From: Catajapyx aquilonaris
Lineage: Eukaryota
DNA length: 57,654 nucleotides
Reading direction: 5' to 3'
Assembly: GCA_000934665.2 (NCBI GenBank)
Contig: JYFJ02002394.1
Coordinates: 1 to 57,654, forward strand
This document shows positions 1 to 53,345 of this stretch, piece by piece. Each line of letters opens with the position of its first letter. The stretch's first letter is position 1. The notes under the pieces were generated by a model. That model did no database searches. It was not told the origin of the DNA and worked only from the letters and a program-made list of their open reading frames with translations. A program made the position numbers and the translations under genes.

Positions 1-2852
1 TTGGATTTTGAAAGTAAATTGAATTAGAACTGAACACTTAAATTCTGTCATATCCCCCCCTGGCGGTTTATGGGTGCAAGAAGTAGTGTGAGTGTATAAG
101 AGGGGCGGGGATGGGATGATACGAGGCGCGTGGGTCTGGGCTCACACTGTAACCCATCCCGGCGTGAAGATTCTTGCTTCGCTTGAGAAATTGCGGCTTT
201 CCTGCCCAAAGCCATTTTCCAAGAAAACGGCCAAGGGGGGAGGGAGAAGGAGGGGAGAGGGGCATTTCCTCCCCCCTTGCCTCACACCCACCTCCATCCC
301 CCTGTTTCTTATAATGGAAATCCGCCTCGTTAGTGCCTCACTCAATTTTTTCGGGGGGAAAAAGGTGGGCCAAAAACTCAGGCTGTTGGATACAAAAAGC
401 TCGGGTTTTGTGGCCAAATAAAATCGTGCGTGCCATATATTCACTCCCCGGGTTAAAACTATACGAGACTAAAAATTTGCTCTGTGGAGATCAGGCCGAT
501 ATTGATAAAATGTGCAAAACCAGAATACAGTAATTAACCAGCCGAATTATAAAAATTTAACGATTTGTCATTACCGCCATAATGATACTGTGACAAAGTG
601 CCACTGGGATATACATTCTCCCATTGTCGATATAATAATGTCCGAGTACATTGCCAGGGTTTAGGTGTGCTGGGTGGCCACTTTCACTTTTACACATTTT
701 ATGATTTTATTGCAAAGATGTGATTTGCATTAATTGGCAATTTAAGAGTATTGTGCAGGGAAGCCTGTACTCGACTAATATGGGAATGGGAAGTTATAGT
801 GGATTACGTATAATCTGGCACATTTTGATTAATTGCCATTGACTAGCCTGACGTGAAAGAAAGAAGTGGGTTCCTTTACGGCTCCCTTCCCGGCGGCCAA
901 AGAGAAGCAGGGACACGGCCGATGAAGTGGAGAAAATCAACGGCCCAAGAGCGTGGCTCTGCTTGGCTGGCCAGATTACATCCACTAATTAACCAATCTT
1001 CTTAATTATTATCAATGTAGACAAGGTTATGCATTGTGCACGTATTGCCACACACATGCATTTGATATTGAAAATGACCACCATCGTTGGCATTGATCGG
1101 AGTTGCACCTTTCCTGGATTAACGTACATGCCTATTCAGTGTGTATACACTGTACCAGACTTCAACTCAATCTGTAATAATTAAAAATGCTGCTTAGTTC
1201 GTCAGTTATATAGGCTACGCTGGTTAATTTGAATGCTAGGGAGGGGAGTTGGATTTGCAAATAGGCCTATAACATAATTTGACAAAAGAGACAACATTGC
1301 TGTGGCAAAAAATTACTGCAAATAACAGAAGAGAAATATTGTTAGCCTAGAAAACTTAGTCATAGCCATTCAGTATAAGGTCCTATGAAGAACCGTAGTG
1401 TCATGACTCATGACACTTCGGTTTCTTATTTGCAGATATGAAACGGCCCATTCAAATAGCTTTCGTTTTAATTGCATATCCAGTGTATCTGACTCTGGAT
1501 ATTCTAGAGGAGCTTTTGGTGACATTGCTATACAGACTGCGTATCCATAAGGCAAGCATTTATGTGATGCGTGGTAATCAAACTGCAGTTAATATGCTAC
1601 AATATACGGCGAAGTGAGTCGATTTCGGGGAAATCACTGATACATGAAAAATTATTATGACTGTATGCGTGTATACAGCTTCGTTTGTTTACAGGCGTAT
1701 TAACCTGCAACAGGGGTCTGTATAGCCATCTTGTTATTTCACACAAAATAATTTATTAACGTTGGTGGTCCCATGTTTATGAAAACGTTCAACTGAGCAT
1801 GTTTTCAGGCCACAAACGTACAGTATACACTAGAGCCTATAAGCTTAAATAAAGTGTGGGGTGTTTATATATTATGTTGCTTTAAAAATACAGCATGATT
1901 ACTTGCCTGTAAATAAAGCTGCGGAATTCAGGCAGCGGTTAGGTTATATCCATGTAGGTTGTTGCTCAATTATAACAATTAATTAAATGCATCCAGGCCT
2001 ATTGGAGTTTGGTGAAATGTAGCATGCATACTGTGCATGTATAGAAGAATAATAAGTATTACAAGATGTTCTGCAAAAACTAGCGCAGCAGTAGCATTCA
2101 AGTCATATGCCATTGTTCCGAAGGGGATACTTTTGTCGCATAACTATTGCCGGTAATACTAACTAAATAAGGCTTTCAAAAGGTTATTACAATAATGTAA
2201 GAGTTTTGATTCAGTTCTGTAAGTTTGCTTATTTGTTAGACTATCGAGATTAAAACTCGTGAATGTAAATATGCAAGTAATATTTTGACTTTTGCCTGAC
2301 ATTGAACGTGCTCATTTTTAACCTTTTTACTAGTAAACTCCTGGCAATTAATGTCTCCATTTAGAGTGGTGTCCTTCAGTGAATATACTATAGTACCCTA
2401 CAATTTGCATAATCGCAACGGCACTTGCTCATGAACAGACAATTGTAGCACTCAATTACATACATTTTAATATGCTATTATCGCAATCAGCATTGTGTAC
2501 TGCAGTATCATTTCAAGTGAACCCTTACGGGTAGCATATTTTTCTCTGTTCTCTTGTATTACAAGAAAGTGCTCAGGGCGCTGTAAACTCGCAAATCTCT
2601 TATCTCATAATTCAGTCCAATTCCGCCAGGTGGTCAGCTTGAATAGATCCTCCCATCTACCACCTCTTGCCCATTATTATTCCAACTCCACGGCAATTTA
2701 TTGTGTCCTTAAGCGCCAAGAGATGATGACTATTCACCTGAAAAATGGGTAAATATTTCTGTTTTCCACGACTTCTCAATGCCGTTTTCTCCATCGTCAC
2801 AATCCTCATGATAACACACAGATTACACTTTCTTTGTGTTATGAAATGCAAA

Positions 2853-2919
2853 CTAATGTGTTGTTTTTTTTGTCTTTTAGGTAAGTCCCTGGCTCTTGAA
2901 TCACGCCTGCGAGGTATGT
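2853..2919 (+). other. recursive splice site (AG|GTAAGT) with 33-nt cryptic/micro-exon 2881-2913
   Basis: CTAAT branch point (2853), long T-rich tract, TAG ending at 2880 directly abutting GTAAGT, and a second donor GAG|GTATGT at 2914. Confidence 0.55.
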
Positions 2920-5900
2920 ACATGAAAATGCTGGTGCACTTGTTCGAATAATCCATAGGCTCATTTCTCCAGCGGAACAACTTCCAATAAACTCCGATTC
3001 GGGCAGGAGTGATAAACGCGTCTAATTAAGGCCCAAAGGCACCTTTTGAAGCGCATCTTACAGACCACCAGAGTTTGCTTCTGGGCAAAGGAAAATTATT
3101 TCTGTGTTCCTATATGGGTTGGCATCATTGTTTGGCAGGGTAGAAAAGTCACATCAAAGCCTAACTGGACTGGAATGAGAAATTTGTTTGAAAGTTTCGA
3201 AAAGGTCAGACTGCAATTTGTGCCCTTTTCCTCCGCCCATTTGAAATGGGAATAATAAAAACTCATCCCGCTTTTGGAGTGGTAGAAAAATTCACCTGCA
3301 CTCGGGCCCCCAGAAAGGTTGTAAAGGAAAGCCATCCTTCACCCTTTTACAACCCCGAATGGCCACCTCAGGTCCCCTCACTGCTCAGCAATAAGGCCAC
3401 TGCAATTACACAAATAATAAAATGAGAAGGTCGAGTCCTGCCTAAGAAATTTGCCTCCAATTTGTTGTCGGTGACTTTATGACAGTCTTTTCTTAAAAAT
3501 TTCTGACATCTAATTTCAAATAGCAGTGTGCATAAGTAGTTAAGAGATAGGTGTACATTTTCATCATTATTATTACTATTATCTAGCCCAGCAATTTTGA
3601 GGGTAAATATAAACATTTTGCGCGCAGTAACCACTCTGTTAGCTGCTTTTTATTTTTTTGATCCGGAATAACAGGTGATATCATAACGATATTCAGGTGG
3701 ATGTATCCAACGGGTGGGTGGGTGGCGAGGTAATTGTGGAATGCAAGAAATGCAGTAGAGCAGGTGTTTGGGTGCGGAGAGATTGGGGGAGGCTTCTTTG
3801 TTTATTCCTCATCTTCAATGCTGGTCCATTTGGGCGGAGGTGCACTTCTCATGACGTATGGAGATAGATACTACTGGCGGGGTGATTTACCTTTACTTCT
3901 GACCAGAACTTTCCGCCGCTCTAATGAGGTCATCTAATGGCCAGCTTTAACCCATTTGTTAGGTATGGAAGTCCCTTAAAATGCGCGTACGTGAAATAAT
4001 TGTGATACTATATAATGGGCAGGTAGGACTCCAGGAATCCCCTTCATTAATGCTTAATTATATTGCTCGCAAGTGGATATTTTTTTTTTTGTGCGTTTTT
4101 CTCGCAACGGACTGGATGGGGTGTTATCAGGAACTCATCCATCTCAAGGCATAGGAATTTCTACCTGGTTGGAAATGAGTGGCAGGAACCTGTTGAAAAG
4201 GGAATTAAATCCGTCCGAAGAGTCTTGACAGGGATTTACGGGCTTTACTTGGACTAGAACGATCGGCTTCTATTTGCACCCTGTCTGCCCAGGTATTTCC
4301 TCATTTTGGTGAAAGAAAATGTCAAGGACTATGTTGAAATTCGTTCAAGTTCGAGCATGACTTGTGCGTCACGCATTTGGAATGCCAGGCATGTGCAAAA
4401 AATGTCAAAAAATTTTACCGACTAATTCGTAAATAGAGTAAATAAGTAAAATCCTGATTGCTCTTGCTGCATTGCACATAAAAATCATTGGGCGTGACTA
4501 TCGATGGAACCTTCCAGGTCTGGGAAATTGGGGCATGAAGCGTTAAATAAAACGATTACTGGAGATTTGCTTTACCCTCAGGCGTCTCCATGATTTAGTA
4601 TACTGATGTGCCAGAATTCACATGATCGAATATTTCTCATACTATATACTGCATCCATTTTCAAGTCAGCCAGTAACTGCTTTTTTATATATTTTTTCCC
4701 CTAAAAAAAGCGAGAGGCAAACATTGGGCACACCACCATTTGTGCCAGGGGCCAAACATCAGGTACACACGAATCTCCATGATGCACACGCAAACAAAAA
4801 GAAATAGGCTCGGTGTGTAGCCCCGTGGGGCCTGATGCCCAGCATGCTCCCTGCCTGCCCTTTGCTGACCCCGACCATACCGGGCTTCCCATCCAAGCCA
4901 CCAGAGCCACACCCGCCCAAATGCTGCTAACACACTTGCATCACATTAACTCAATTTATGGCCTCACACGCCAAATATTATTTTGAAGAAGAAAAAAATA
5001 ATACGGGTGACCCTGATCTTAAGTCATAAAAAATTGTTAACAATGGGTGCCCGCTATTACAGGTGAAAGCTGTCCTTGTGGATACCCCTAGTTGTGGTGG
5101 TCACTGCTTCAATGGAAAGTTATGGTGGGGGACCGAGAGGGGTGTTCGATCGGTATCAGAACCACAACAGCCTGAAAGCATACACACGTATGACTCTCTG
5201 GTACGGCAGGATCCCCCACTCCCGACGGCCTTTGGCGCTACGGGTTGCCGATTAACTTCCACCAACTTGCCGGCAATAAATCTGGGGAAGACTATAATTT
5301 CGCCCTTGACAATGCACGACTTTGTTATTTGTACGTTGCAGCCCGGCATTTTTAATAGGTTGGCTGCATGACGACCCCTTATGCCAGGATGCCCCATTGT
5401 TGAGAAGGGGGAATAAACCGGGCAAAGTAAACGTGGCGGGGCTTGCTGTAATTTAATATCCGCCTTGCACAATGCTACTTCGGTTTTTCTTAAGATAGGA
5501 AAATGCGGTTGTGATACGGGTTGGCCCGGGGGCGAACGTGAAACTAAAACAATACGACTTTCCAATCGCCCATCATTGCGTAATATGCACCAAATATTGT
5601 ATGTCTATGTGCAGTGAAAGTTGTAGGAAATGGAAATTCCCCAATGGTGTTTGCCCTAAGCCTTCCAAATGGGCTCCATTGAGATGTCCGGCTGATAATG
5701 ACCGTCTCCGTCTCCAAAGTCTCAAGTCTGGACACGATGTCCCACAGACGCCATATACCGAAATAGAAAGACTATCCGGAGCCAAAGGGCAGTTATGCTA
5801 GTCTGCAAATTAGGTAGTGTCTGGAATAGTTACAGTACATCTATTTGCATATTTGCTTTAAAAATGAGTGCCACGGGTGTAAGCCAGTGAAATTTCTAAT

Positions 5901-8808
5901 GTTTCATAATGTGATTTGGGAGTTAATGAGTCCCCGAGATGGGTCTAATGCGGTGTTGTTTGCCCAGGGACCCCTTGGGGACAAAAGGTACCATTCTCTT
6001 CGCCAAGTCACCTCACGCCAGCAGTAAAGATGTAAGACAAGGCAGACTTAATCCGCTTACAAAATTTCCACCCAAGAAACGCCACTGCCCCCCCTACAAC
6101 GCCCTTTGGGCTCCTTTGACTATAAGCTCGCCCCCGGATCATAATTAGAAAGGGAAGTTGCCATGAGAATTGCCTCCTGAAATTGTGCCTTATTGCCTCT
6201 TGTCACCTCGGGTTATATTGTTGAGGGGAAAAAATGGAGGGGGGGAGGGGGTTATAAGAAGTAGAAAAAAAATTATCGTATGGAGAAAACTCGTTTGATG
6301 TGCGATTTCATGCCGCTTTTACTTCTTTTCGACAAGGCCACTTGTGTTTTCTACCAGGTGTATACGTCGCTCCAGCCAATTCCACTCTAAATGCAAATGG
6401 CTTGCAAATGGGTACAGTCGATCTAGAAATTTCATCTCGTCCTCTAGGGTGGGAGAATCGCCACTCTTGAAACAGGGGGAATGCAGTAAAAAAAACTAGG
6501 CATGTCATGTGGCTCATGGTCAAAATTGTGCTCAAATTGGTGAATTTATTGGGGCCAAATTGTAGATGAATGTTCTGTATCCGGCCAAAACTTTATTGGT
6601 TGCGATTGTTGTCCCAGTCGGCGCACCTCGTTAAGTACAGTTACACAATGCAAGTGTGACGATAGTTGTTTCCGACAGCGATACTGTAGGAAACACGGCA
6701 TAACAATGCATGGTTTTTGGGAGCGGTTATTGGCAGCATCCAACCATTATTGTCGCACATTGTTGAAAGTGGACCACGCTACCATTCCCAGGATCCAACT
6801 GAATCTCCTGTTCCTCCATGACAGACACAATTTGGATCGTAAAGCCACAATTAGATATGATAATGCGGTTGGCCGACAAGAAGTCTTTGATGCCAAGTAA
6901 TTTGACCCTCCCAAGGATAAGGAAAGTTGACTTTTATTCCCATCGCCCTCCGGGGGGTACATCGAAGTCACAATCACATTGGAAGGATGATATTACCCAT
7001 TTCCGCACCACTTGCTTTTATTTTGTCAACAATGTTATGAAACTCCTAACCCGATCCATTCGCATTGGAGAACACGAGCGTTGTGAGTCAACGCAGGCAT
7101 GAGTGGATCTGGTTGCTCACTGCGCATGACCCTCACCGGTACTCGAGGGGGTTAAAGTATGCGCAAGAAAAAACGGAAATGCGTTGGTAGAGCTCCCTAT
7201 TGGATCGGGGAATGAAACGCGGAGGGTTTGTCACCCAATGGGATCGGACCAGGAGGAGCTGAGGAAGGGAGGGCCAGGGAAGGACTGCGCCCAAGATGGA
7301 AGCAGGCCACGCCTCTAGGGGGGGGGCACCTCTGCACATGTCGCCGACTAGCGGGGAAGACGTCAACTCACTGGTTGCACGCACTTCTAGAAACTGCCGA
7401 GGGAGGCGTACTGACTTGCTAAGTTAGGCAGGCGGGAAACTTAAATTGGTGGTGGTGGGTCATGACCTGACATGCGGTTAATGATTGACTGGGGCCTAGA
7501 GCAGTATGGTGCGACAGCTAGAGGCGGGGTTTTTTATACCCGGAATGCGGATCGTTGAATTATTGGTTGTGCAATCTGTACATTATGCCAGCGATCCGTA
7601 TTTACAGACAAGTTATTTAAATGTGCACGAACGGGTTACGGACAAGCGTTTTTGGTGGATGGCTTTATTTATGGTGCCGGTGGCAGTGATTTTTAACTAG
7701 GTTTTGGTGCAATTTACAGTACAGTATAGTATAACATAATGCGCAGGTGGACGGGTTAATATTGCTCGAATTTTTGTGGACAGGGTGTGACTGCGTGACA
7801 TCAGTCAAAGTAATGAGCGTGACGTGTACACTCTATATGGATTGCTCCTAACGACGTGTTTTTCTCATATGGCTGTGGGAACCTCGATACCGAAATCAAG
7901 GTTGCACTTTTTGTTTGTCTCAGTCGTGCACATAGCATCTGTAGAACACATCACACTATAATTATACAGTAGTTCAATTGCATTCCAGCTGCAGACTTAA
8001 TGCATTTTATACCCACATCTATTATGCGGCATCTCAGTGGGTGTAATAAAAAGTCGTATAAATATCTAGAAAGAGTGGAAATGTGGGATATATTTCTTGT
8101 TAAAAAATTATACATAGTGTGATAGGCGACTATTCATTTCTGTAGTACATCATTACCACAAAGTTGATTAGTGATGATCAATCGGTACGCTAAAGTTTCG
8201 GAGCATTGTGTCCAATAATCCATCACTTTCAGAGTTTAGAGCTGGTACAGCAGGCCGAAAAGGCCGATGTATCATAGAGCCATAAAACGTGTTTGAATGG
8301 AATTAAAGCTTGTTTCGCGAATCACCAATCCCTCTCTAAACCGCGAAAAAAAGTGCACAAAGCCCTGGACATGTGCAATGCTAGAATGCAAAAATTACAC
8401 TCCGAGTTAAAAGTTAATCTAATACGTGTGCCTGAAGCGAAGCTGCGTATGCACTGTATGTACGGATACCGCTAGGAAACAGGGTCCAGTGTCAATATGC
8501 TCGTGTTGTATTACAATGTTTGCGCATAATCAATAATGGCTGATTGTTTAGCAATAATGTCATCATAGTTCATATTTAATGGCCTCCTGAGACCCTCCAC
8601 GGCGGAATATGAAATCGGTTCGGTTGCAGTTACCACTCTTCAATAGAAAAAGAACGTCCTCAAACAGCTCCCAGCCGCCTGAATCAAAGATGACCTCCCT
8701 TCCAAACCCATAAGTAATACAGTGGCTCGCTCTGACCATTCTCTCGTACACTCTTGCTAGTAAAACACTACGTACATATCGATATTCCTGGGTGACGTCC
8801 TGGGCCCC

Positions 8809-8848
8809 GCGATTGGCTGCGATTGGCTGTGATTTGCCGCGATTGGCC
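8809..8848. repeat. 4 x 10-bp tandem repeat GCGATTGGCT (inverted CCAAT boxes)
   Basis: GCGATTGGCT GCGATTGGCT GTGATTTGCC GCGATTGGCC. Confidence 0.8.
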
Positions 8849-8907
8849 CTGGCTTCTTTTAACTCCTCCCATTTCTCTTAGACATCCGGAAAGACGATCG
8901 TCCTTTA

Positions 8908-8971
<64 letters not shown>
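8908..8971. repeat. (TAT)n microsatellite, about 21 units
   Basis: Directly visible perfect trinucleotide run. Confidence 0.97.
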
Positions 8972-11900
8972 GCGAGTTTGTGACTAGTAGAAATTATTGT
9001 GAAGCATCAAAATGGCCACATAAATTAGAAATAGTGCACGAGATGGGTGCGTGCAACCTGTTCTTTCCCACAGGGTGTGCCAGTGGGTGGGCGGACTAGG
9101 TGCCAAGTGGCACTTGTTTGGGTGTGATCCTTCGCCCTGTGGCTCCCTTGGCCTAAGAAAAAGGGGTTGCAGCTGCGCAAAAGCCAGGGTTACCGCAGTC
9201 CAAACACATTCATTCACAATGCCCTCCAGATGGCGCAGGATCAATACAGTTGGGAGAGCAATAAGGATATGCTCTGATGGGGAATAGTAGTGGTTGAGAC
9301 AGCAGCAGGTGAGCTCAGGTGAGATTGGGAAGGAGGGGTGCTGAAGAAAGTCAAGGCCAGGAGAGGGAAAGGAAGGAAGGGAATGGCATCCTCGACTTTT
9401 CAAGATGCCTCCAATCAGGCCCTGAAGGAACAAAGGCAGTTGGATATGCCCATCTTATGCCCAACACCGACACGGAATGGGGCGGCTTGCTCTTTGCCTG
9501 CCTAACATCATTCGAGCACGAGAAAGAAGCGTTTTATCCCCTCTAGCAACCTGCATCTTTATTTTTTAACATTAAAAAAAAATGAGATATGGATAACAGT
9601 GTTTCAAGGCGTGGTAGAAAGATCCTGAGCGTTAACGGATATAATTTTTTTTTGTCTTTTGTCCCCCCATGCGGCATTCCAGAGATACCTTCATACACAA
9701 ACGCGGTGCACGGTAGTTAAAAAAGCACATTGATTAATGGTGCGCTGGGCGGAAAAGACAATGCTTTGGCTTGGCTCTCCCCAGCAAGCATCTCCTTTTT
9801 TGTGAATAGACAAAAAAAAACTGTTGGTAAGTTATGCCATCAGGCTGCTCTAGTGACTATTGGCACTGGCTGGGTGTAACCTTTCCCTCCGAGTCGCCTT
9901 CCCAGGAGCAAGGTTGTCCATCCTATATGCCGGGGCACCAGAGGTCAAGATTGACTGGGTTGATAAGTTGGTTCGTTGTTGAGGTGTTGAGGGAGGAGCA
10001 GGTTGTTTGACTTGTAGATATTGCCACAACCAAGCCCTATCCATTAGGAACGGGATGTTTCAGAAGTGTCTTGATTTTTTTTTGTACGAGTGTGTTGCTT
10101 TGACGAAGTCTTTTTCTCGAGGCTATTGTCTAAATTAATTTGCATTGTTATGAATAAATGAATTCGGGGGTGAATAATGAGCAGAAATCGATATGTTATG
10201 ACAGCCGCTGCTAATGAAATAATTAACAGAGATTGTCAGACCACAAAAAGTGAATCCACATGTCGAAATCTACGCAACAGGTTTTGCTGGGTTAAACATC
10301 AGCTATTTTCCCATGCATATATCTGCAATACTTTCATTTCCTTTCTCTGATAAGCCTCGTATAAAAAATAATAATAAAAAGTGCAATTAATTATTTTATG
10401 GCTGAGTGAGCACAGTCTATTTCCAACCTTTCTTCTCGTATTTCACGGCCTTCTAGGAAACATGTTTGCAGGTGGAAAAAAAAGACGTCACATAATAATC
10501 ACACCCATGCACGAAACTCTTTTCTTCGACAAAGCCTCAGGAAGGACATGCCCACTGACCCCCTCTTCATGCACTGTAAATGGACTGGTCAGTCGCCCCA
10601 TTTGACAACATCGCTTTTCCTTCACCTGCCTGAAGCACAACCTGGGGGGAAGATGATGGTCCTGCGTTGTCAAGTCTCATATATGCACTGTGCAGACAAG
10701 GAGCCACTTCTTCGAATCCACTCCCATATTTAGCAAGGAAGACCGTTAGCATTTTAGCACGAAGAAATTGACACGAATATTAGCTACGCACAATTTTAAA
10801 GTGCTGTATGAAATATGGTGGCCATGACAGATCCGGGGTCTTACTGCCCACGACAGGAGCGCCGCCTTTGTGAGATTAGCATACTAGCAAATGGTAGACG
10901 CACAAAAAATCGCTCAACTATTTTTTTTTGAAATGCTTCTCCCGCTACAAGAGGTCATCTCGAGTAGCTGTCCGACGGCCACCGCCTACCTACTTTGCCC
11001 CTTTTCCTCCTCGGACAAGAGCCGCCGCCAATTACCCCACGGAGTGTCCCAACCTGCCCCTGGCTACGGGTTAAAAGCCATACCCACATTCACGCAGCCA
11101 ACTAACTCGTTTTTTACCTGCGGGCTTCTCCTCTTCTTATACATGCATACCTGCACTTTTATGAATGAATATCGAAACTCCTTGAATGTGGAGGCGGTCG
11201 GTGGCTTCTTCCAGCCAGAGGCGCTTGCAGAAGCAGGGTCTGTTGGTCAGCATCCAGGTGACGCAACGTTTTCTTAGAACATGTTGCGGTCAAGTTGGGG
11301 GAGGGAGAAGCGTAGGCCATACCTGTTTGTTGTGACTCACTGTTTACACGCTGCTTGTTTTTTTAAAGCAAAAAAAATGAATGCGAATTGCGAAATGATA
11401 GAGTATGAACTTGCAGTGAAAATTTCCCCACTTTGATTGTAAACATGTTACAAAATTAATCGTGACGCGTATGCGCTTTGCAGAACAATAAATCTTTATT
11501 TTGTTTATTCAATGTTGGCATAATGAGGGAGTACTTAAATACTGAAAATTAAATGCAATTATCGATAGAAATTGCCGCGGAGAGGAGGGAGCTTGTGAAC
11601 AATCATATACCTACATGATGTATGAATAATTTTTCATTATTTACATAGACTGAGATCAGAGTGTAGTAATACACAAGCTAATTAATACGCAGTACAAGGT
11701 TCATTGTGTTTTAATTTAATTATATGCAGAGAGCTGGTCGACAACCAGGAAAGAGCATAAGTTATAGGTCTGGTTTGCGCGGATAATTGAATGAAATAGT
11801 TAAATAAAAAATTAATAGAAGTGCAATCGTCCTTTAGGGAAACAATTAAGTGGAGAAACATTCATGGCAGAAAGTTCTGCTAAGGATTTGCGGATATCTA

Positions 11901-12967
11901 CCGTTTCGAGACATTTGATATTCAGGCATTAACATAATGTGGTAAAACTATAGTACTTTTTTGCGTTTTCTGTGTGCATGTGGCATATACTTGCTATATA
12001 CTCTACTATATGAAGTTACGTTGTTAAACAACGGGACGCTGAATAGTTTGCGAAAAAAAGTGCTCATTTTGTATACGATGCATTTGTCCAACTTTTAATT
12101 TATTTCCTGATACGAGTATGCTTTTAATAGTGCCTCGGGCCCATAACATCATATACACGAACCTTGACTTAAGACAACAAGAGAACGCGCCATTTGAAAG
12201 GCACAACAGAACCGTAGAGCATGAAGAAAAAAAAAATCCGTACGTTATAAAGCATTGCATTTACATCACAACTGACCAGGAAAAAGTACGACACAACCCC
12301 ATCCGAACATGTAAAAATTGCCAACTGCGCATGAATAACAAGTAGTTGGTGCATCTTGCCCAGTTGTCATTGCATCTTCTCACCTGGGCATGCGAAAAAG
12401 GGTTCTTCTGGCTGATATCCCAAGGGCCCATTAACATTCCAGCTAGGACTGGTCCATGGGCAACGTAAACACTGACGTGTATATGGTAGAGGGTGGTTGG
12501 GTGGCAAAAGAGCTCAACAGGTGAGTGTCTCGCCTGGCAACATCGCCTTAGCCTTGGGCAGGGGCGGATGGGGGAAACCGTGGAGGAGGATTGTGGTGGT
12601 GGTAAGAAGACGGTGGGGGTCGGCATTCCAAGGTGCCGCCGCCACCGCAGCGCCTCGGAGTGGTCACGGCGCTAATCAGGGAGTGGGCCTCCTTACGAAG
12701 GATCCGCAGCCCCAGAAAGAAGTGACGGCGGTGGGAAATATACTCGCGGCAAAAGTGTCCTGCGGCCATCTTAGAATTCACCTGTCCTTAGCCAGGCGCG
12801 CGCGCAAGCTGAAGAAGACTGGCCAGAGGCTGTGTTTCGGGTAGACTCGTGCGTGTAGTGTGCCGAGGGTGCCCTAGGCGACGGCGGCGGATCCGCGCTG
12901 TTTACTGGCCTCGGGGCTGGGGGAAAAAAAAGCAGCATGACCAACGCCCCCGACGTCTAAAGACCCA

Positions 12968-13180
12968 ATGGCCCAGATGAGTCCCCTAGGGGCGGACAGT
13001 CCCAATTCCTCGGGGCAGAAGAGGAAATCTCCAGCAGATGATACCGACGGTGATGCTCTTTCGCCTAGGAAGCAACCGACGCCTACTAATAATGGAAGCA
13101 GCGATGTCTCGGCTGTGTATCTGATTGACGGGTCTGACGATGCCACGGCGGTCGTGTCTGTTAGTGACGTGGACGAGGAG
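12968..13180 (+). CDS. TfAP-2: AP-2 candidate alternative first coding exon 1A (71 aa, MAQMSPLG...SDVDEE)
   Basis: ATG at 12968 follows an in-frame TGA at 12938. There are 71 open codons ending GAG|GTAATG (phase-0 donor at 13181), in phase with the exon at 19132. The peptide looks protein-like (KRKSP...SPRK, acidic tail). Its connection to AP-2 is inferred from phase and position only. Confidence 0.6.
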
Positions 13181-16100
13181 GTAATGTGGCTTCATTCTTG
13201 GCGGGGAGACTTCAATGCGGGAGTCGGAAGTGACCGGGATTGTTAAGGGCTTGAGGTTTGTTTGGGGGCTTGGTTACTCCAGCGTGACATATTGCACGTA
13301 ATTTAGGGGGCATACTTGGTTGGTTACTGTCAATTGTTTGAGTCGCGCGTCTGAATTGTTCGGAATGTACAGCCAAATTCCTGAAGAGTGGGCCGTGAGA
13401 AAATAAGATGGGTCCGAAAGTGCACTTGGTCATTTTAGTGTGGAACGTACGGCACGCTACTGTTACTTTCAGAACGTACTGTACTTTAAATGTGTTTGTT
13501 ATTTTTTGAGAAGTTCATACGAGAAAGGTCTGTAAGCTATTGATTAATAACACGCGTATTTAAAATATTGATGAGTAACAATCAGCAATGCATGTATGCG
13601 TTTAGCTGACTTATTCAGTGACATTATTTAACCCCGGACACATTTGTATTCATCCCGGACCTTAGCTGGTAGGATCGAAATAGACCCCATATTGCAACAT
13701 AATTTCGTATCGGTTTTACGTTGTGTACTGTAAATTTATGATCACGGAACATCCTATGAATATCGTACCCAAACCAAATATTATAGAGCATCCTCTATGT
13801 CGTGCGACTTGAAAGACATGAGCTAACCACCTCAGCAGGTGCCTTCAAGGGCAAAAGAGTCTTGCCAAACAACTATCAATCACTGCCTCTCATATTGACC
13901 AGCCATTTCACAAGTCCCAGCATCACGGTCCGACATGTTACCAAACCCATACCGCGTCGGGAGGTTATTCCACCAAACGACGTCCGTCCTCCATAGGAAT
14001 TCAGTCCCTGTTCGGAATCTAATGAATCATCAAAATTCTCCCCCAACTTCTGCATGACGTAGCCTGCATTGTCTGGAAATTCCCAAAGTGAAAAGCAGTG
14101 GCAATGTCAGTGGCAGTTTGAGTTTTCCAAACTCCCCATGGCGCCAAGGCCAGAAGGCGGCTCCAGGGCGATCGCAGGACACGATAGGACCCCACTTAAT
14201 AGTCTCTAGTCGGGAAGGAAATAGCCACAGGGTTGCTACATCCACAAGAATGCCAAGCTCTGATTTCAACATGCGACACTTCTCATTCATGATATTTTTC
14301 AGGTAAGGTCACACCACCACGAGTGGGCCGAATCCTGTTTGAGAGCAGGGTCATCCCTCACCTCTTTTACCTCCCAAATCCTGGCTCCTATTTGGCCCAC
14401 AGGTGCGGTGACGCCACAGAGGACACCCCCTAAAGGAATGCCTCTCTCAAAATCCATTCCGAGTTCTCCCCTAAAGTAGCATGATGGGCCAGCAAGATAA
14501 GTCCAGCCCGTTAATACATTGGGCCTTGGTGCAAAACCGCGAAAATGAATACGTCGCCTACCAGATTTATGAGGGTGGGTTACAAAAAGAGGAATTTTCT
14601 GCACGGATCTACCAGAAAATTGTTTTACTGCTGGTTTGCTTGTCCTTTGTCTTGCTCGCTCAATTTGCTGAATTGCGAGTTCACACAATGTTTACAGGAC
14701 AACATTGGGATTGAATTTAACACCGGACATTGTCCTCTTTGTCCACCCAGAGTGTTAGGTGTGGACTGAAAGGTGATGCTTGTTTTCTTCGCGAAACCCG
14801 CCTTGTTTGCCTGGCTATTCATCAAGTGACATAACGCGTGTGTTTCCCCGGGTGCAGGATAAGGAAGAAAAATAGGGCGGACAATTCCTCGAAATATAAT
14901 CCACGCCATTACACACTATCCCAGCACGATAGGGATAGTACGAGTCAAATGTAAGTACCGAGGGGGTGACGGACCGGTGCATAAAAATACACCGTAATTA
15001 ACACGTTGTCCAACATGTTATGCATACTGAACACCTGACGCCTAAGGGGTAATAACTGCACTACTACCCCACTTCTTTCTTCCGGTGCAGTTCCGGAATA
15101 TGGTTTCTGGGTGTTGGCGACTTTAACACTGGACCGAGAAACGAACCCTGGTACTGTTATGTGCGTGGCTCACAAAAAGGGACGCTTTTGGCACACACTT
15201 GCACTCCAGACTTTTCCTGTGGGAAAGGAGTTGGCAGTAGGGTAAAACTCGCACGGTATGCCAGCCCTGGTTTTCTCGAGCACATCCGTTGCAAAGAGGC
15301 ATTTATATTATTGCCCTTCTCCTCCACCACCTGCCTACAAAACTGACCGCGGTCATGTCTTTGGTCCGACTCTTTTTCTCCGTTCCTCTTCATCTTATCC
15401 CGCCTCTCCTCAGCACCAATTATCACAATTAGCCGAAAGGTGAAGGAACTTCCCGGCCTCCAACCAGAGCTAGAAGAGGTCTTCCATACTTGCTCAACAG
15501 GTGGTTCGAAAAAAAAAATCAAACAAAAAAAAAGGTTGAAGGCCTCTTCTTCCCCACCCAACATCCACCCCCACATAATATTCAGTATAATTATTCAGAC
15601 ATATTAAGATCATCTGTTAGTCCGGACACAATCCGATTGGCTCATGCTGACTTGCAGATGGTATATATGGTTGGTCACCTGACGTCTTACTAACTGCGTA
15701 GAATGGTGGCCTACCATGGCGTATTATTTTCCAAGCATCGTCAATATTCTTACCCCCTCATCCCCCCTCTATCTGCCACCTTTTCTTATGGCAACCTTGT
15801 GACGTCATTCAGTCTTTCCCGCGCTTTTGATTGCCTTGGAGAGCGTGATGACAACGTTGCCAATGTGCTTATTTTCATAATGCGATACAAAAGGTGTGAT
15901 AAAAAAATAAGGCGGAACTTTGCACTAATGGCTAGTCACGCTTCATTCGCGAATAACTCGCGTGTTTAGAGCTCTGCACAATGCTAACCATATAACTATT
16001 AAGGGGAGGGGTAAGGGGGTGTTTCCACGATGTTACCAGGAAATAAATAGTGAGCCGCCAAGTGCAAGGCGCTGGCACAGTTACACGGAATATGGACTAT

Positions 16101-16379
16101 AAAGTCGGCTTTATAGCCACGGTTTTATCTGCTACAGGAAGTAGAGTTGATGTCAATAGTTGCGGCCCTCACCCACAAACAGCACTTAGGCGAATTGATT
16201 CCATTAAAAAATTCCGTTAAAAAATTTATCAACTAACAATACCGTACGTATTGAGTTTGAGTGTCCTATATATAGGACACTCATGTTTACATCAATGTCT
16301 TACACCTGAAGATCGATACGACCCACTTATTAAAAGGCCCCGATCACCTGAGGAGTCCGTCGGCCCTAACCTCCGCAAC

Positions 16380-16550
16380 GCGCAGTGTCGCCCGGGGGCA
16401 GCCTCACCCCCCCTCGCCCCTCCGTCGAACCAACCAACCCGCACTCTCTTCCCCCCCATCTGCAAAACACCCCGCCCTGGGCCCAAAGAGCCTGGGGGTA
16501 AGCCCCGCTTCACGGAGCCCTTTTCCTCTCTCATCAGTCAGTCGGTCGGT
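16380..16550 (+). promoter_or_regulatory. putative promoter of exon 1B
   Basis: GC-rich tract with AP-2-type sites (16390 GCCCGGGGGC, 16474 GCCCTGGGC, 16490 GCCTGGGGG). It is followed by overlapping TCAGTC initiator-like motifs (16534, 16538) about 250 nt upstream of ATG 16790. Confidence 0.45.
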
Positions 16551-16789
16551 TATCGGGCGAGGTGTTTGTAGGGTCCGTCGGACTCTCCCTTAGCAACCCC
16601 CACGATGCACAAGGCATGACACTCACGTGGTGGTGTGCAACGGTGTCTTCCACATGCGGTTCCTTGTCCACTAGCTCAAACGAATGGCAACCTCGCGTGT
16701 ACGGAGTGACCGGTGACAGTGTGTGGAACATGTGTAATAGTGAAAGATAGTTTTTTTTATTCGTGTCAGTTGTGGATTGTCACGGAGAC

Positions 16790-16807
16790 ATGTCCACGGC
16801 GATGGAG
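16790..16807 (+). CDS. TfAP-2: AP-2 candidate alternative first coding exon 1B (MSTAME)
   Basis: ATG TCC ACG GCG ATG GAG|GTAAGA is a strong phase-0 donor, with an in-frame TAG upstream at 16748. It joins to give MSTAME-ERV..., reminiscent of short vertebrate TFAP2 first exons ending ...SAM-DR. Confidence 0.7.
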
Positions 16808-19131
16808 GTAAGATGCGAGTTTGCTAATAACGGTAATTAATATTAAAAATAGCAGTTTCATATCCGGGAGATAACCTTTAGGTCGAAATTAGGAAAGTTC
16901 GAAGTCGTCGATGGTTTTAGGTACAAAGGAATCCCATTTCCGACTGGGGGAAATTGCACTGTTGCCTCCCGGTGAACAGGAGACGTACACTTTGAATTGG
17001 AAACAATGGGGGAGTTGCATTCCAAAATATTTATCGCCATTAGCTCTCTTTCCTTGTGTGCGGGCCAGAAATGCAATTAATTAGTGGTCATTGGCAGGCG
17101 CGGAAATAAAATGCCGTTTCGGACATGAAATGTGGCGCGTTGTTCCGTATAACTACAGCCCCATGTTTAAAACACCCCTGAATTTACCAACAAACACAAA
17201 GTCATCAGCCGCATGATTGGCCCTCCCACCCACATATATCCCCTCACATGTAGCCCTCCCCCACCGATCGATCTGAATCGATTTGAAACGTTATCCAACC
17301 ATTCCCGTGTCATGATGCTGTTACACTTTATGGATGGTTAGGTTTTCATAGGTCAGAGAGAAGTTGCTAATTGTCCTGTATGATTAGTCTACAAGGGGGA
17401 AATTGGCGGGCGGCATCCTGAAAATTGTCATCGTCGTGTAATTTTTAATTAATATTTCATTTTGAATTTTTGCACAGAATTGAACACCTGAAATTAATCA
17501 AATAAAATAAAATCGTGTGTCAATTATGGAAGTGTTTAGAGTACATACACGGTAGTGCGTGTTTTCCATCGCGAACTCATTCACACACGTGCACATACTC
17601 ATAACTGGTCGTACAGCCTATGAGATAGCATCCCACGTTCCCATTTCTGACTTGAGGTGAATCGAACCTGTTACGTAGCAGAATTTTGACCGGTTTCCCT
17701 TTTATTTTTTGCTTCCAAAACCATATGCGGAAATTCGCAGCTAATATATCTCCTGTTGTGTGTTATTGAGGATTAGTGAAACTGTACTGGACGGGTCTCT
17801 TTTTCGTGTCAATTAATTAGCGTTAAACGATGCTGGTAAACACGCGTATTTTCCCCCATTGAAAACGGGAAAGGGCTATACTTTTTTTCTCCCCCTATAA
17901 TAGATTTATTAAGGCGATTGATGTGTCCACGAATGTTTCCAAGTCACGAAAGCGTATAGTGTGGAGTTTACCAATTTGGTTATTGACAATCGCAACCGAG
18001 CATGCCAATAGGAGAACAAACACCCGGCGGCACTGTTGGAAACTCCCAAAAGCGTAATCCTGACACGAGCCCGACTTTAAATCACAAACAAGGCCCTGTT
18101 GTGATTTAATTGTTGCGTAAAATTTCCCACGCCGTTTGACCAACATTTTTACGAGCTGGACCTAACTTCTTGATGCCAGACCCACGAGCCACAAAAGTTT
18201 TAAGAGTCGACTATAAATCTGTCGCATTGGAGCTTTTTGGAATAATGCGCGTGCTTGTTTGGCTTCAAAAGACGTGTGTGAAAGTGTGGGAATAGGTGTG
18301 TGTATGTGGAGAGAGCCGATTGGGACGTATTAATGCTGGATTCCCTTCGAGAGTCGCACATGTTTAAATTTATGGGCCATAAGTGGACCTATGGAAAAGC
18401 AGATCTGGTGGGCCTCGTAAAAAGAAGGTGTCCTCCTTGGGAAAAAAGATGACACTGAGCGACCGGAAGAGCGGGTTTTAAACCTGATTCTAGGGCAGAG
18501 GACATCTGCGTGTGACTCAATTCTGTACGGGGGCAGAGTGGGCTAATTGTGAATATGTGCGCAACTTATTTTTCTTTCAAACATTACCTTGCATGTTTGA
18601 CACGTTCGCTTGGTAGGTAACAAATGACGGGTTGGAATGGATGTGGCCCACGCAGCAATGGAAGTTGATGAGATAAGGGAGTCAGGCAGGACTTTTGAAG
18701 CCTTTTTGTTTTCAAGGCCTGCTGCTGCCGCTACCTTCTCTTCAGCAGCAAGAAAAGCAATTTATTTCATCCTGACCGCGCTTCAAAACCGTTGTCTTCG
18801 CCAAATCTTACCAACCGTGACAATGAAGGATGACCCTGCCCAATACCTTTTTAAAAAATTTTAAAAAATGCATCGCGTGACGTATGAGATAATTTACACT
18901 CTTTGTTACCATGCACCAGCATCCTCAATGTACACTTGTAACATCGAATCGTGACTGAGATTTACAAAGTGTAACCCGCGGAGATGTCCGGATATCTCCT
19001 GATTTGTGGCGTGGGAACTTGTACTAATGTCCACGAGACATTCATTAAGTTCCCACTGCGTGATGAGCGACAATAAATCTGATCATTCGGAAATTTTTTG
19101 ATATTAATCCACGTTTTTAATTCTGTTTTAG

Positions 19132-19407
19132 GAGAGGGTGACGGCGCATTCGGCGATCGGTTCGGTGGCTGGCAGCACACCGTCGTTCAGCTCAACGCGG
19201 ATGACGCCGACGTCGGACTTCCAGCCGCCGTACTTTCCTCCTCCATTTGCACCCCAGCAGCAACTGGCCGAGTTCCACGCTGCTCATCTCAACGCTGACC
19301 CATACTCACAGCTCAACTCGCTGCATCAGACCCATCAGACTCACTACCAGCTGGGTCAGAGGCCACACGATGTCCTCCGACGCTCTGAAAATGACCCCCT
19401 CCATGTC
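19132..19407 (+). CDS. TfAP-2: AP-2 common exon, proline/glutamine-rich transactivation region with DFQPPYFPPPF motif
   Basis: Acceptor ttctgttttag| and donor |GTAAGT at 19408; 276 nt, phase 0/0. FQPPYFPPP is the AP-2 family PY-motif signature. Confidence 0.93.
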
Positions 19408-21240
19408 GTAAGTATTGTCTCTCAAGGTTTTTGAAATTATTCACAATTTTAAGCAACAATGAAAGTAGTTGCTTGGGCCATATAATAAAGTGTGCCGAAT
19501 TATTTTGCTGAAAGGGCTGCAACACCTAGGGTTTACGACGTTGCTCTTTTTTAAAAAAAATGACCACACGGAGTCCCGAGCAGGTTAACAAGGATTTTTT
19601 CACCTGTTTGCATGGAACCCCCTAGTGATTTAAACCTCTAAGAATGATTAACGCCTTATTAAAACGTCTCAAGCGGTAAAGTAGCCATTATTAATGACGC
19701 TTAATCGTTTAAATGTTCGTGAGATTTCTGGAGCTCTGATCTCTGCATGGGAAATACTTAAATCCTGGGTTTCAACTTTTCAAAAAAATAATTCATACGG
19801 GTATTCCGGTTTCAAGATGTTTGAAATTTTTTTGTGTTCGCAAACAATCTCGAATTCGCATCGTGCAGCGACATTTTCTTTTCGATGGCTAGCTGCACGT
19901 GATTTCATTTGTCGGCAAGAGTTACAGTCCGGTTGCGGTGTGGAATTTAATGGAGCGATGGGACACGACACCTCATTACATGTGTCATAAATCGGGAGGT
20001 CTGAGTGTACGTTAGGATGGTAGCTGAACGTGTTGTGGCATGACTGTACGAAATTTCTGCCTGCACGCAAATTAAGTTGAAACCAACATTTTACGCCGGT
20101 TCTACCCACTAAATATTCTTTAATGGCTCAGTAACTTTTCCAAAATTTGTGTAATTCTCTTGTCTTAGTTTTTCGCGTGCGAAAATTAAGCCATTCAGGA
20201 GGTTTTCCTTACTATAAATTTTAGCTCGTGACCCGAGGTCAGCGTTCCTCCAAGTAGCCATACTAGTTATCCGCACATGCGCACTCTACAAATTGTTGAA
20301 TTCAGTTAATTGAACTAACAATAAATTATATTCGAAGCGCAGTTTCCTGTCACATGTGCTTCAATGTATCAGATGGACAGTGTCTTATCACGTCAATCCG
20401 TATGTGACTGTCCCTTTTTTATTTAATTATGCCACTTTTGTCCTCTCCCCTCTTTTTGATATATATCGAAGAGGAAAAGGGCCGCCCCTGTTCTTGGGTC
20501 CTTTGGCTTGCTGCACTTGGCCGTGGCCCCCTCGATTGCCTTCGTTTCCCGGGCTTTGATCCGCGTCACTGTGTCATCATCGAACTTGTCAAACATGCAT
20601 AGCTGCCTGCGGTGTCGGTTTCAGCCTTTTGGAACACTCCCCCCATCTACTTCCTTTTAATGACTGGCTGAAGGAAGCTGCAGGTCACGTGGCTTCAGAC
20701 TGTAATTCATGCATATTCGCTAATCGACACAATGGGTCCAAATTACTCACGCATTTCATTACGTTTGAGCGTGGTCCACAAAAGCCTGGAGTACAAACGC
20801 ACAATAGCGGAATTGATCTTATTCATCTCTTATCTGAATGAACTGGTGCTACCTAAATTCTTGGGCTAGAATCGATACACGGGTCTTTATAATTAGGAGT
20901 CCATGGCCTAGCTAATTCATCTCCAGAAACAGTGACAAGAGGCAAGCACCTGAAGACGTTGATTGGCATCCTATTTAAAATGGGATATTCTATGCATATT
21001 CAAACAGGGCCTGAACAGTACTGGTCTTACCTTACACTCCATCAATTTTTTTTGTGTGGATGGGGGAAAAAGACCCTCCGAGCGACCTCTGTTAACCCGG
21101 GTGAAATCAGCCGGATCCTATTTCTAGTTTGCCCTTTTATTTTTCATGAAGCTGACATCCATACTTAGGAGGGTGCTGAAGAGGGAGAGATCCCCTGGTA
21201 CACTGATTATGTGTCTGACAAGATATGTGCTTTTTTACAG

Positions 21241-21399
21241 GCGGCCAACATGCACCCGGCGGCTGGCTTCTACGATTCCAACCGACGGGAATATAGTGTA
21301 CGTCGCCCTGATGTCCTTGTACCTGCAGGTCATCCGGGGTTGGACGGACACGACGCACTTGTACTGCCAAACGCGCTTCCTTCCGTCGAAGATGGCCAG
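21241..21399 (+). CDS. TfAP-2: AP-2 exon (AANMHPAAGFYDSNRREYSVRRPDVL...VEDGQ)
   Basis: Acceptor gcttttttacag| and donor CAG|GTAAGC; 159 nt, phase 0/0. RREY..RRPDVL resembles the conserved AP-2 RRDY..RRPDVLL segment. Confidence 0.9.
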
Positions 21400-27610: not shown

Positions 27611-29937
27611 TCATGATCTTTTTGCAAGTTTCCCCTATCATTTACACGGTATGTGATGGGGTGAATATATAGGGGGGGGGGGGCACTGGAATTTTCAGGT
27701 TAATATGAAACGCGACCTGTATTGATCGAGATGCGTCATACTGATGATCGATGAGTAATCGATCTTGATCCCTCAAAGCGGAAGCTTCCCGAGACAAAAT
27801 TGAACGCTCTGCTTCCTCATTTCTTAACCCCAGCAGCTTGGGAAATAATTTTCTAGGGGGGGTTAAATGAAAATAGATGGGGGGGAGAAGCCTTGCAGTA
27901 CCCCCCCTCAAAAAAAGGGAGAAAAAAAATCCGGAACGAGTGAGAGAGAACCATTAGACGGGGAATGCTCATTCCGGAACAATTTTCCGGACGGGCCGGT
28001 CGGAGATTCGACCCAACGAAGCACGTCTCTCTTCAGCCACCGCTCTCACTCAGCTTCTAATGATGGATCCAAATGGGGAGTCTGCCTGGGATTCTACTAG
28101 AGGGGGGAGGGGGGAAAGGATGATTATGTGCATATTCTTGAAGAAGATTTAAAATCATCTTACGGGCCACAAACGTGTCTTAAACGCCCGGATCTTGAAG
28201 GCGACTGTTTTTTTTTAATGTAGTCATCCGATGGTGTATGGGAAGAGAGCGGGACTAATTTCAAAAGTCGTGAGGTTGTGTCTGAGGCATCAGGCGAAAT
28301 GATCAGGACTTAAATCACAGCCGCGTCACGCAGGATGAGCCACGTGTTGGGCCAGGAACGTGCGTGAGCCACCTCTTAAAAAACTTGGGTTTCATCAGAA
28401 TAATTGTAATTTAATTTATACTTAATTAACCGACAATTGCGCACACTGCAATGGCGCATATAATCCGCCTTATTATATAGTTTAATCCTTGCTGCCAATT
28501 TTCCGGGTATCCCGTTAGCTTAGTGTCAAACCCCCGAACTACTGACACCTTGCTAAGTCTCCTTTCGTGTCTTCATTGTTTACCACGAAGGTGATAGAAT
28601 CTAACAAAAGCTGAAGTCAGCAACGGGGCCAAAAGCGAGCACAACATGTGCATTAAGTAAGTGGTCATGCGCTGTCTGCTCGGTGCAAAATGCTGTTAGG
28701 TAAGGTTTCTTCGCCTTTTTATTGCCCGATTCGTTAGTAAGAAGGGGGTAATAAGGATGCAGGTGTGGTTGGGCTGGGTCAGGTGAAAGGTTTCAGGGCG
28801 TCGAATAAGTTCCTTTCCTTCAAAAAGGATCTTAAGTTTGTTATTGAAGCGTGTAATCCAATCGCGTCTTATATTCAGCTCCTTCAGCTTAAACTCGGAG
28901 TAATAAAGATAATAAAGTCATTAGCCAGGCAAGTCGGTGGCGTTGGGGAAATAACATCGGTTATGCCGGAATTGAGAAGTTGTTGGAGCCTCAGCAATTT
29001 GCGTGGGCGGAGGGTTCCCACACTCGACATTATTGCGGAGGATTGTTCTTTTCCAAGGGTGGTGGTTATGGGTAGTGTCGGGACACACTGATTAATGGAA
29101 TCCGGATTGCATCAGTATTTACCGGTCGTTCACCAGGTAAAAAAAAGACAGATTGACAATTGTTCGTAAGATGGAGGCAAACGCGATTCTTCCCTGTCAA
29201 GGGCAATGTCCCAGTAGCATCCTCCGAAGGATCACTTAAAAGTGGCTGTTATCCGAGGTGTGGACAACGAACTGCACGACTCGGTTTTAAAACGGGCGAC
29301 AGTACATTGACTTCAATTATCCGGACCTAATCCTACAGTCACACCTATATGGACACCATCACGTTTGTCATATCCCCAGTCGTTGTCGTAGTATCCATCA
29401 AAGTTGCCTGGGCTGATATTACCGATTTGTAATTCAATAAGGAACAGTTGCGCACCATGTCAGTATACGAATGAAAACACTGCATTGTGCATGCAATGGG
29501 GTCAATCATGCCGGCTTCTATACTCTTAAGATAGGTATCAAGAGCGTGCGTGAAAGAGCGCCATGTAATAAAATGTTCACGGCTAGAACCCGCCGATTTG
29601 ACCGAGAGAAAACGTGTGTAATTGAGACATTTTGGGAGCGTTTGCAACACGACGACACCGGGATGGCAACATGGCTGGTCAGACCGTGTGCCGGCCACGA
29701 GCTGGTTCCCCCCACAGCCTCTCATCATGTATATCCACCCAAACACCCCCAATATCCTTCTTCACCAACTAGTTTGGGTGGCTTGGTAAATCACCACAAA
29801 CGCTTGCCTCCTCCTTTCTCGTCCCCTGCTTGTTAATCTGGCTTGGTGAGCTTGGGACGCCGCCAATGATGATGCCAATGATGATGCTTTTATGCCCAAC
29901 TTCTTGCAAATCTTAACGATGCTTTCTTCACTTACAG

Positions 29938-29995
29938 AATACCAATGTGGAAGACAACGGCGGATTCATCGGTAGCGACATTCCTCTTCTTAAAA
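29938..29995 (+). CDS. TfAP-2: AP-2 small exon (NTNVEDNGGFIGSDIPLLK)
   Basis: Acceptor ctttcttcacttacag| and donor A|GTGAGT; 58 nt, phase 0/1. It supplies exactly the phase change needed between 21399 and 34053, and resembles the short vertebrate exon (HVEDPG..I..DQTVIKK). It is not in the ORF track. Confidence 0.85.
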
Positions 29996-32900: not shown

Positions 32901-34052
32901 GCATTCAATGCTAATTGATGGATGTCATTTTGATGGAGAGTATACCTTGTTTTACATTGTTTTGATACCAAAGGCTAGATATTGCGAAGAAACTATTTTG
33001 GTAAAGCACTTTGCGTACTTTCCTAACGAACGAAGTTTAATCGCTAGAAAAGCCCATGAAAGAATACGTTCCTCCACCCAATTTCCTTCCCATACCTTGG
33101 ACCTCATAACGGTCCGGTATTGATATTGGAAAAGTTTTACTGGAAAAAATGCCCGCTCTCCTACAGTCCATAATTGGAAAAGGGCAGGCAAGGCCCGCCT
33201 TTTTGCCTTTCCTCCCTCCCCCACCATCCCCCTCTCTTGGATTAAAAACTCTCGTAATGAGACCGCAAGGGTGGGTGGGGGATGGAGTGGGTGGGAAGGG
33301 CTCCCCATCTCCAAAACCTCCCCTCAGTACACCCCCTTCCCTGCCAGTTCATATTGACCAACGGGCATTCCACAACTGAGATACATACCCCCCTCTCTCT
33401 TCCCTATCCTATCCCCCCCCCCCTCCAAAAGCTAGCATTGTTCCAGTGAAAATGTTTAGCATACTTGGCGTTTTAATCAGAGTATTGCCTCAGAGCGAGT
33501 TTAGCTGCAGGAAATTCCGGAAGGGGGCTCCTGAGGCAAAGAGAGCGCGAGAGGTATATCAGGGGAGGGGGGGAAATGAAAGGGGATGCTGCAGTACCAG
33601 AAGAGGAGGCAGGTATATACACTTTTGGGGATGAAAAATGCTCCTTTTGAAGCAATGGCTTCTGTGTCTACCCCTGCAATCGACCTGGTACAGATGCGCC
33701 CAAGTTGGCTTCCGAGGTGACAAGTGTGCACTTGGTATCGCTGATAGCCAGACAAAATTGTTGGTTATGAGTTATGACATATTACAAATTATGAGTGGGA
33801 CCCACTGTTGGTCTTTGTGATTTGCCGATTTGGCATATATTATATTAATATATTAAATATTATATAATATTCCCAACTCGCGGTATACGTTATGTTCTAC
33901 ACACTATGTATATAGATAAGCAGATTTCCAAGTTGTATGCCTATAAGTGTGTACTATTGTGGGCTATTGAACTGGGTGGAATCCGTTTCAAAGAAGTAAC
34001 ACAGGCGGGGATTCAAACCCCGATTAACCCGAAGCAATGTTTCCTTCTTTAG

Positions 34053-34254
34053 GCATGAAACCCCGTTCGGAAGGCACCAAAGAGATGCTCCTGTCCGGGG
34101 TGGCGTCCCCGACCGATGTGTTCTGTAGTGTCCCTGGACGTCTGTCCCTTCTCTCCTCCACCTCCAAGTACAAGGTGACTGTCGGGGAGGTGCAACGACG
34201 CCTCTCGCCACCAGAGTGCCTCAACGCATCACTGCTCGGCGGGGTCCTCAGGAG
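34053..34254 (+). CDS. TfAP-2: AP-2 exon, start of DNA-binding domain ([46 protein letters not shown])
   Basis: Near-invariant AP-2 family sequence. Acceptor ttccttctttag| and donor AG|GTGAGT; 202 nt, phase 1/2. Confidence 0.98.
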
Positions 34255-46469: not shown

Positions 46470-46588
46470 GGCGAAGTCCAAGAATGGCGGCCGATTATTG
46501 CGGGAGAAGCTGGAGAAAATCGGGCTCAATCTCCCTGCCGGAAGGAGAAAGGCTGCCAATGTCACGTTGCTCACCTCTCTTGTGGAAG
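46470..46588 (+). CDS. TfAP-2: AP-2 exon, basic region ([40 protein letters not shown])
   Basis: Translated by hand because this frame is absent from the ORF track; it is canonical AP-2 sequence. Acceptor tctttttccag| and donor G|GTAAGT; 119 nt, phase 2/1. Confidence 0.98.
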
Positions 46589-52500: not shown

Positions 52501-52524
52501 CTAATATTGGCTTGTCTGTTCCAG

Positions 52525-53276: not shown

Positions 53277-53345
53277 GTACGTACACCTATGACTCTACAT
53301 ATGACCCGTATATTACCTGCACAACTAACACACTATTATTTTCAG

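Follow-up and report, generated by a model that had tools for sequence, protein, structure and literature searches.

A candidate recursive splice site upstream of the AP-2 transcription factor gene of Catajapyx aquilonaris

The stretch of DNA analysed here, a contig of 57,654 nucleotides from Catajapyx aquilonaris that is referred to below as the window, holds on its + strand an arthropod gene for the transcription factor AP-2 (Table 1). Exon 2 of this gene is closest, among named proteins, to its counterparts in the mayflies Cloeon dipterum and Neocloeon triangulifer (61-63% identity), and it is the exon that any distal first exon would join. Two alternative first exons precede it in the window. 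Exon A, which is 48% identical to residues 1-73 of Cloeon isoform X2, has no pyrimidine-rich acceptor 5' of its ATG and for that reason looks like a genuine first exon. Exon C lies inside the intron that separates exon A from exon 2; it was missing from an earlier gene model and was added by the present analysis, and its relatives read MSTMME in Periplaneta and MTSFME in Bemisia. At the other end of the gene, the 69-nt intron that splits the last coding region (GTACGT...ttttcag, 53277-53345, + strand) is in frame and free of stops, and its retention would add 23 residues and leave the protein unbroken. A donor-like sequence, caacag/GTGAGTGT (12513-12528, + strand), is located in a GC-rich stretch about 450 nt 5' of the exon A ATG, and may either end a non-coding leader exon or be a chance occurrence.

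The 12.9 kb that lie 5' of exon A contain 42 open reading frames of at least 70 residues, none of which has an above-cut-off Pfam match, and searches of the same region returned no Rfam family and no repeat, so that no other gene lays claim to the site described below. Comparison of this upstream region with the known introns for strand asymmetry (poly(A) signals, donor hexamers, T-runs and base composition) gave no discrimination, and the skew profile likewise gave none.

It is in this region that the initial annotation had placed a consensus recursive splice site, about 10 kb upstream of the first AP-2 ATG. The motif that it described, consisting of CTAAT, a poly-T tract, TAG/GTAAGT and a second donor after 33 nt, is present on the + strand where it had been placed, and the measured distance to the ATG at 12968 is 10,087 nt. 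CTAAT is the fly branch-point consensus, and its second A (2856) lies 24 nt 5' of the G of the acceptor AG. Within the 20 nt that precede the acceptor, 16 are pyrimidines and 15 are T. The acceptor itself is TAG (2878-2880), with the GTAAGT donor directly 3' of it (2881-2886). Translation of the 33-nt piece that lies between the candidate junction and the second donor agrees with the peptide reported earlier, VSPWLLNHACE, which is free of stops in phase 0 and contains no in-frame ATG. The same frame is closed on the 5' side by the TAG at 2878-2880 and on the 3' side three codons beyond the second donor (VCT and then the stop). Because the piece has no start codon and its frame is closed on both sides, it could be coding only as an internal exon. 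The in-phase partner that had been named for it is borne out, as exon 2 starts with ERVTAH at 19132 in phase 0. A supposed echo of the vertebrate ...EDCE/DRH junction found no support: the vertebrate exon is an ATG-bearing first exon, and the 33-nt piece has neither an ATG nor any similarity to it.

Table 1. Positions in the window of the AP-2 exons and of the elements of the candidate recursive splice site (a slash marks a splice junction).
Feature	Position	Strand	Basis	Details
Branch-point-like CTAAT	2853-2857	+	sequence	
T-rich polypyrimidine tract, gtgttgttttttttgtctttt	2860-2878	+		TT at -5/-6
Candidate ratchet point, juxtaposed acceptor and donor AG/GTAAGT	2879-2886	+	sequence	junction 2880/2881
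Candidate RS-exon, 33 nt	2881-2913	+	translation	phase 0
Second donor GAG/GTATGT	2914-2919	+	sequence	GT at 2914-2915; would define the RS-exon
AP-2 first exon A, coding part	12968-13180	+	homology	71 codons, MAQMSPLG...VDEE; donor GAG/GTAATG
AP-2 alternative first exon C	16790-16807	+	equals the N-terminus of Cloeon dipterum isoform X6	6 codons, MSTAME; donor GAG/GTAAGA
AP-2 common exon 2	19132-19408	+	homology and RNA contig	ERVTAH...PLHV; acceptor ttttag/, donor GTC/GTAAGT
Further AP-2 exons	near 21235-21399, 29935-29994, 34040-34255, 46468-46588, 52518-52667	+	tblastn	
AP-2 last coding region	53100-53465	+		split by 69-nt intron

How often such a motif would arise by chance can be gauged from the window itself. 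AGGTAAGT occurs twice in the 57.6 kb, both times on the + strand, once at the candidate site and once at ~46588, where it is a real splice donor, that of AP-2 exon 6. When Markov copies of the window were searched for AGGTAAGT behind at least 16 pyrimidines in 20 nt, it was found in none of 300 of first order and in 4 of 300 of third order, and with the further requirement of a second donor 15-100 nt 3', in none of the 300 copies of either order. Both strands of the window together hold 65 acceptor-like sites, which, multiplied by the frequency of GTAAGT (9.5e-5), give an empirical chance expectation of 0.006 against the one site observed; the expectation for a site of such quality is 0.006-0.013 per window. 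The motif is unlikely as a chance event within one window. Over the at least 605 windows scanned in the genome, about 4-8 chance sites of such quality are expected, and the statistic alone is thus no proof of function. A second and weaker recursive-like site, tttttcag/GTAAGG (14282-14309, + strand, junction 14301/14302), has 15 pyrimidines in 20 nt and TT at -5/-6, and falls, 11.4 kb 3' of the first site, within the intron that links exon A to exon 2. Its looser class is expected 0.7-1.0 times per window by chance, so that it may mean nothing.

A recursive splice site at this position presupposes a first exon farther upstream, and the first exons of AP-2 were compared among the isoforms of 14 arthropod taxa, where recurrent types are found that all enter exon 2 in phase 0. 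The exons of type A are long (MAQLSP..., ...DTDGDALSPRK...), and those of type C read MSTAME, MSTMME, MTSFME or MLAAELAME. Type B, which is present in 9 of the 14 taxa, takes the form MSFLALDS.SWQ in Cloeon, Neocloeon, Varroa, Tachypleus and Parasteatoda, and a longer form, MTFRC.PAFQPL..DC.APW, in Bemisia, Schistocerca, Periplaneta and Anabrus; their alignment suggests that the two forms are homologous. The isoforms listed for Limulus, Daphnia, Diaphorina, Pediculus and Orussus include no type B. A comparable arrangement is reported for human TFAP2A, which has alternative first exons 1a, 1b, 1c and 1d (PMC3219183), and in both human and arthropods several short, ATG-led exons lead into a common exon 2 in phase 0, with types A and C represented in the window. 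The 33-nt candidate differs from all of these in that it has no ATG and has an in-frame stop just 5', and it could be at most an internal piece of a transcript from a distal promoter.

Exon B was sought in the window in three ways. Full mayfly proteins gave no tblastn match to it, pattern searches of the + strand of 1-19140 gave none, and the best score of three profile HMMs built from B peptides, run over six frames, was a partial match of 8.1 bits. Since exon B is absent from the window, it must lie upstream if it was kept in this lineage, at a distance of more than 12.9 kb from exon A and over 19.1 kb from exon 2. The intron from exon B to exon 2 would accordingly measure at least 19.1 kb, which is above the minimum for recursive introns in flies. 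The initial annotation had taken the start of the window to be the inside of a long intron and had proposed a more distal AP-2 promoter beyond it. The support that this proposal receives is indirect, and consists of a window that holds exons A and C and lacks the B type found in 9 of the 14 taxa; the candidate site is on the same strand as AP-2, and the long intron that would host it is deduced from the absence of exon B. Alternatively, exon B may have been lost in the lineage, in which case the site would be intergenic.

Two RNA runs, X1 and X2, were compared as contigs with positions 1-20000. Run X1 is an invertebrate metatranscriptome that holds a related organism, the exon 2 of which shows 25 differences from that of the window in 279 nt (254/279 identical), and one of its contigs joins exon A directly to exon 2. 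The contig of run X2 covers 19131-19408, exactly exon 2, with 0 differences. The contigs of both runs leave 2669-3335 uncovered and have no joint at 2880/2881 or 2913/2914, a contig gap being uninformative either way. In both runs the exon 2 contigs begin at the acceptor boundary (19131 in X2, 19130 in X1), which a graph assembler would yield if several upstream exons join exon 2, and which low depth could explain equally well. Contigs of run X1 also match non-coding patches of the window at 9399-9452, 9674-9765, 14117-14245, 17959-18129 and 18377-18657, as well as near 2593. Identity in two of these patches (54/54 at 9399-9452 and 91/92 at 9674-9765) is above that of the coding exon 2; the contigs concerned fit in part only and may stem from DNA carry-over, and the patches are possibly conserved regulatory elements or pre-mRNA. 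Among DNA sequences, exon 2 matches two metagenome contigs (1757 and 3189 nt) that end short of the upstream region, and no look-alike of the stretch around the site was found among the other genomes scanned.

The closest known counterparts of the candidate are the ratchet points of Drosophila. As described in one study (10.1101/006163), these consist of an acceptor and a donor set side by side behind a prominent pyrimidine tract; TT occupies -5/-6 in 196 of the 197 sites, and the introns that hold them measure 11.3-132.7 kb. According to a second source (PMC8605326), a short cryptic exon of variable length (~50 nt) that is ended by a donor is needed for their use, and is skipped as the recreated donor wins; cryptic RS-exons of this kind are 'generally out of frame'. 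Recursive introns are, furthermore, enriched among first introns (PMC6110457). The AG/GT and downstream-donor architecture that had been attributed to the candidate matches that of Drosophila ratchet points and their cryptic RS-exons (Ubx, kuz, Bx, luna) feature by feature as sequence: an acceptor and donor meet around AG/GT, the tract is T-rich, TT occupies -5/-6 as in flies, the donor is GTAAGT, and a short exon defined by its own donor, GAG/GTATGT, follows the junction, with 33 nt here against ~50 nt in the fly. The predicted place is similar too, namely a long first intron of a developmental regulator. The candidate differs from the Drosophila sites in its acceptor, which is TAG where CAG is usual; counted by eye, the first 47 rows of table S1 of PMC6110457 hold 4 TAG and 43 CAG acceptors, with GTAAGT in 13 and GTATGT as the ratchet-point donor in 3. 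It differs also in that its exon is in frame and stop-free, in that both its host intron and its use are predicted, and in that its host organism is not a fly.

A second point of comparison is provided by RS-exons that are expressed. The Ubx micro-exons mI and mII are expressed RS-exons of 51 nt each that preserve the frame (PMC8605326), and in vertebrates RS-exons are under the control of competing donors and of the exon junction complex (PMC6224609). With these the candidate shares the form of a frame-preserving micro-exon that starts with a donor sequence, as well as an outcome predicted to be set by the recreated donor against the exon's own donor; it differs from them in that none of the AP-2 proteins compared conserves its peptide. 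The literature search found no paper that combines 'recursive splicing' with 'TfAP-2'. In the nine supplementary files of PMC6110457, the table of which comes from S2 cells, neither the gene name of fly TfAP-2 nor its presumed FlyBase number occurs, a weak negative.

Taken on its architecture, the site is plausible, and unproven, as a recursive splice site. The reading to which we give most credence, tentatively and at a little under even weight, is that of a fly-type ratchet point with a short cryptic RS-exon, serving AP-2 transcripts from a distal first exon, probably of the B type, upstream of the window. A distal exon would first be spliced to the acceptor at 2880, with the 33 nt and the GAG/GTATGT donor together providing exon definition. 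The resulting junction would recreate a strong donor, ...AG/GTAAGT, which would then beat the weaker GTATGT and be spliced to exon 2 at 19132. The effect of this last step would be to remove the remaining 16.2 kb, including exon A with its promoter and exon C, and to leave the 33 nt out of the mRNA. As the better donor of the two is the recreated GTAAGT, the 33 nt are predicted to be skipped. We infer both transcription across the site and its use in splicing.

The mayfly isoforms of AP-2 contain a segment that bears on this reading. In Cloeon isoform X5, MSFLALDSNSWQ/ERVTGH, exon B passes straight to exon 2. Isoform X3 of the same species separates exon B from exon 2 by a 36-residue insert, VSKAAAALWARQ...EPSIHQ. 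In isoform X4 this insert follows a single Met, and the protein of Neocloeon triangulifer is of the X3 form. As the insert is present in X3 and X4 and absent from X5, it is an optional cassette with its own acceptor that can follow two different upstream exons. The cassette opens with VSKAAAAL in the isoforms XP_065332075, XP_065332076 and XP_059485288. Its start is thus Val-Ser, which corresponds to GT[AG]AG[TC] read in phase 0, as at the candidate site, and by our own estimate well under 1% of random exons would start in this manner; read as it is from protein, Val-Ser may equally be encoded by GTN TCN codons. The mayfly cassette thus fits an RS-exon at the equivalent place in the AP-2 gene of early-branching insects, a fit that is suggestive only. 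Val-Ser is also all that the 33-nt peptide has in common with it. The cassette gave no tblastn match to the window at E values up to 10, and neither the cassette nor a vertebrate-like exon 1a gave a pattern match in 1-19131. A search of other taxa with the Neocloeon N-terminus returned only itself, in a collection where clustering at 90% identity hides isoforms and such a negative is weak. It is conceivable, and in our judgement rather unlikely, that the AP-2 genes of early-branching insects share an old RS-exon kept behind the B exon, in which Val-Ser is fixed by the donor, and both the length (36 residues in mayflies against 11 here) and the rest of the peptide drift, with donor competition deciding the N-terminal segment of the protein.

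The ratchet-point reading has to be weighed against others, of which the one to be taken most seriously is that the motif is a chance combination of a T-run and AGGTAAGT in intergenic or regulatory DNA 5' of the AP-2 promoter, with no + strand transcript crossing it. That reading, a real if doubtful possibility, draws on the 4-8 sites of equal quality expected over at least 605 windows at 0.006-0.013 each, on the appearance of exon A as a true first exon with no pyrimidine-rich acceptor ahead of its ATG, on the direct joining of exon A to exon 2 in the related organism, and on a distal exon that was not found in the window. It has to account, however, for the coincidence on the gene's own strand of a branch point and a TT at -5/-6 with two donors, one of them perfect and the other at +33, and for a widespread arthropod first-exon type that is missing from the window and for which only the upstream DNA is left. 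A splice element there might also belong to some other + strand transcript than AP-2, for instance a non-coding or enhancer-associated RNA made upstream, or a neighbouring gene that has escaped recognition. The matches of RNA contigs from the related organism at 9399-9452, at 9674-9765 and near 2593 indicate that RNA, or contaminating DNA, may exist for this region; however, positions 1-12900 have neither coding potential nor a known RNA family, and the matching contigs are partial and strandless and open to DNA carry-over, which makes such a transcript improbable as the source of the site.

The initial annotation had gone a step further and suggested that the 33 nt could be an optional coding micro-exon toggled by donor competition. 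Such an exon would resemble Ubx mI and mII and would add VSPWLLNHACE between a distal exon and exon 2. The length of the piece is indeed a multiple of 3, and it is stop-free and in phase 0-0, compatible with exon B, which ends on a full codon, and with exon 2. Mayflies, moreover, have an optional cassette annotated at the same place in the protein that starts with Val-Ser, and expressed RS-exons are known in flies (<50 against >500 cryptic ones, PMC8605326). The suggestion nevertheless found no support in the proteins, as VSPWLLNHACE precedes exon 2 in none of the AP-2 N-termini compared and bears no likeness to the mayfly cassette beyond the first two residues in tblastn at E up to 10. Nor is an open frame much of an argument, given that a piece of 11 codons would be in frame and stop-free by chance about 1 time in 5 (our own estimate), and the rank of the recreated GTAAGT above GTATGT predicts that the piece is skipped. 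An expressed micro-exon has, on this balance, only a slim probability.

A fly-type ratchet point with a skipped RS-exon would leave the known mechanism of recursive splicing unchanged. To our knowledge, experimental knowledge of intronic ratchet points comes nearly all from Drosophila. If the site is used, it would add to the known recursive splice sites one from a non-fly arthropod, in a gene for a developmental transcription factor. Furthermore, AP-2 would in that case have a far-upstream promoter in this organism, with transcripts whose splicing would have to pass over the proximal promoter and the two other first exons.
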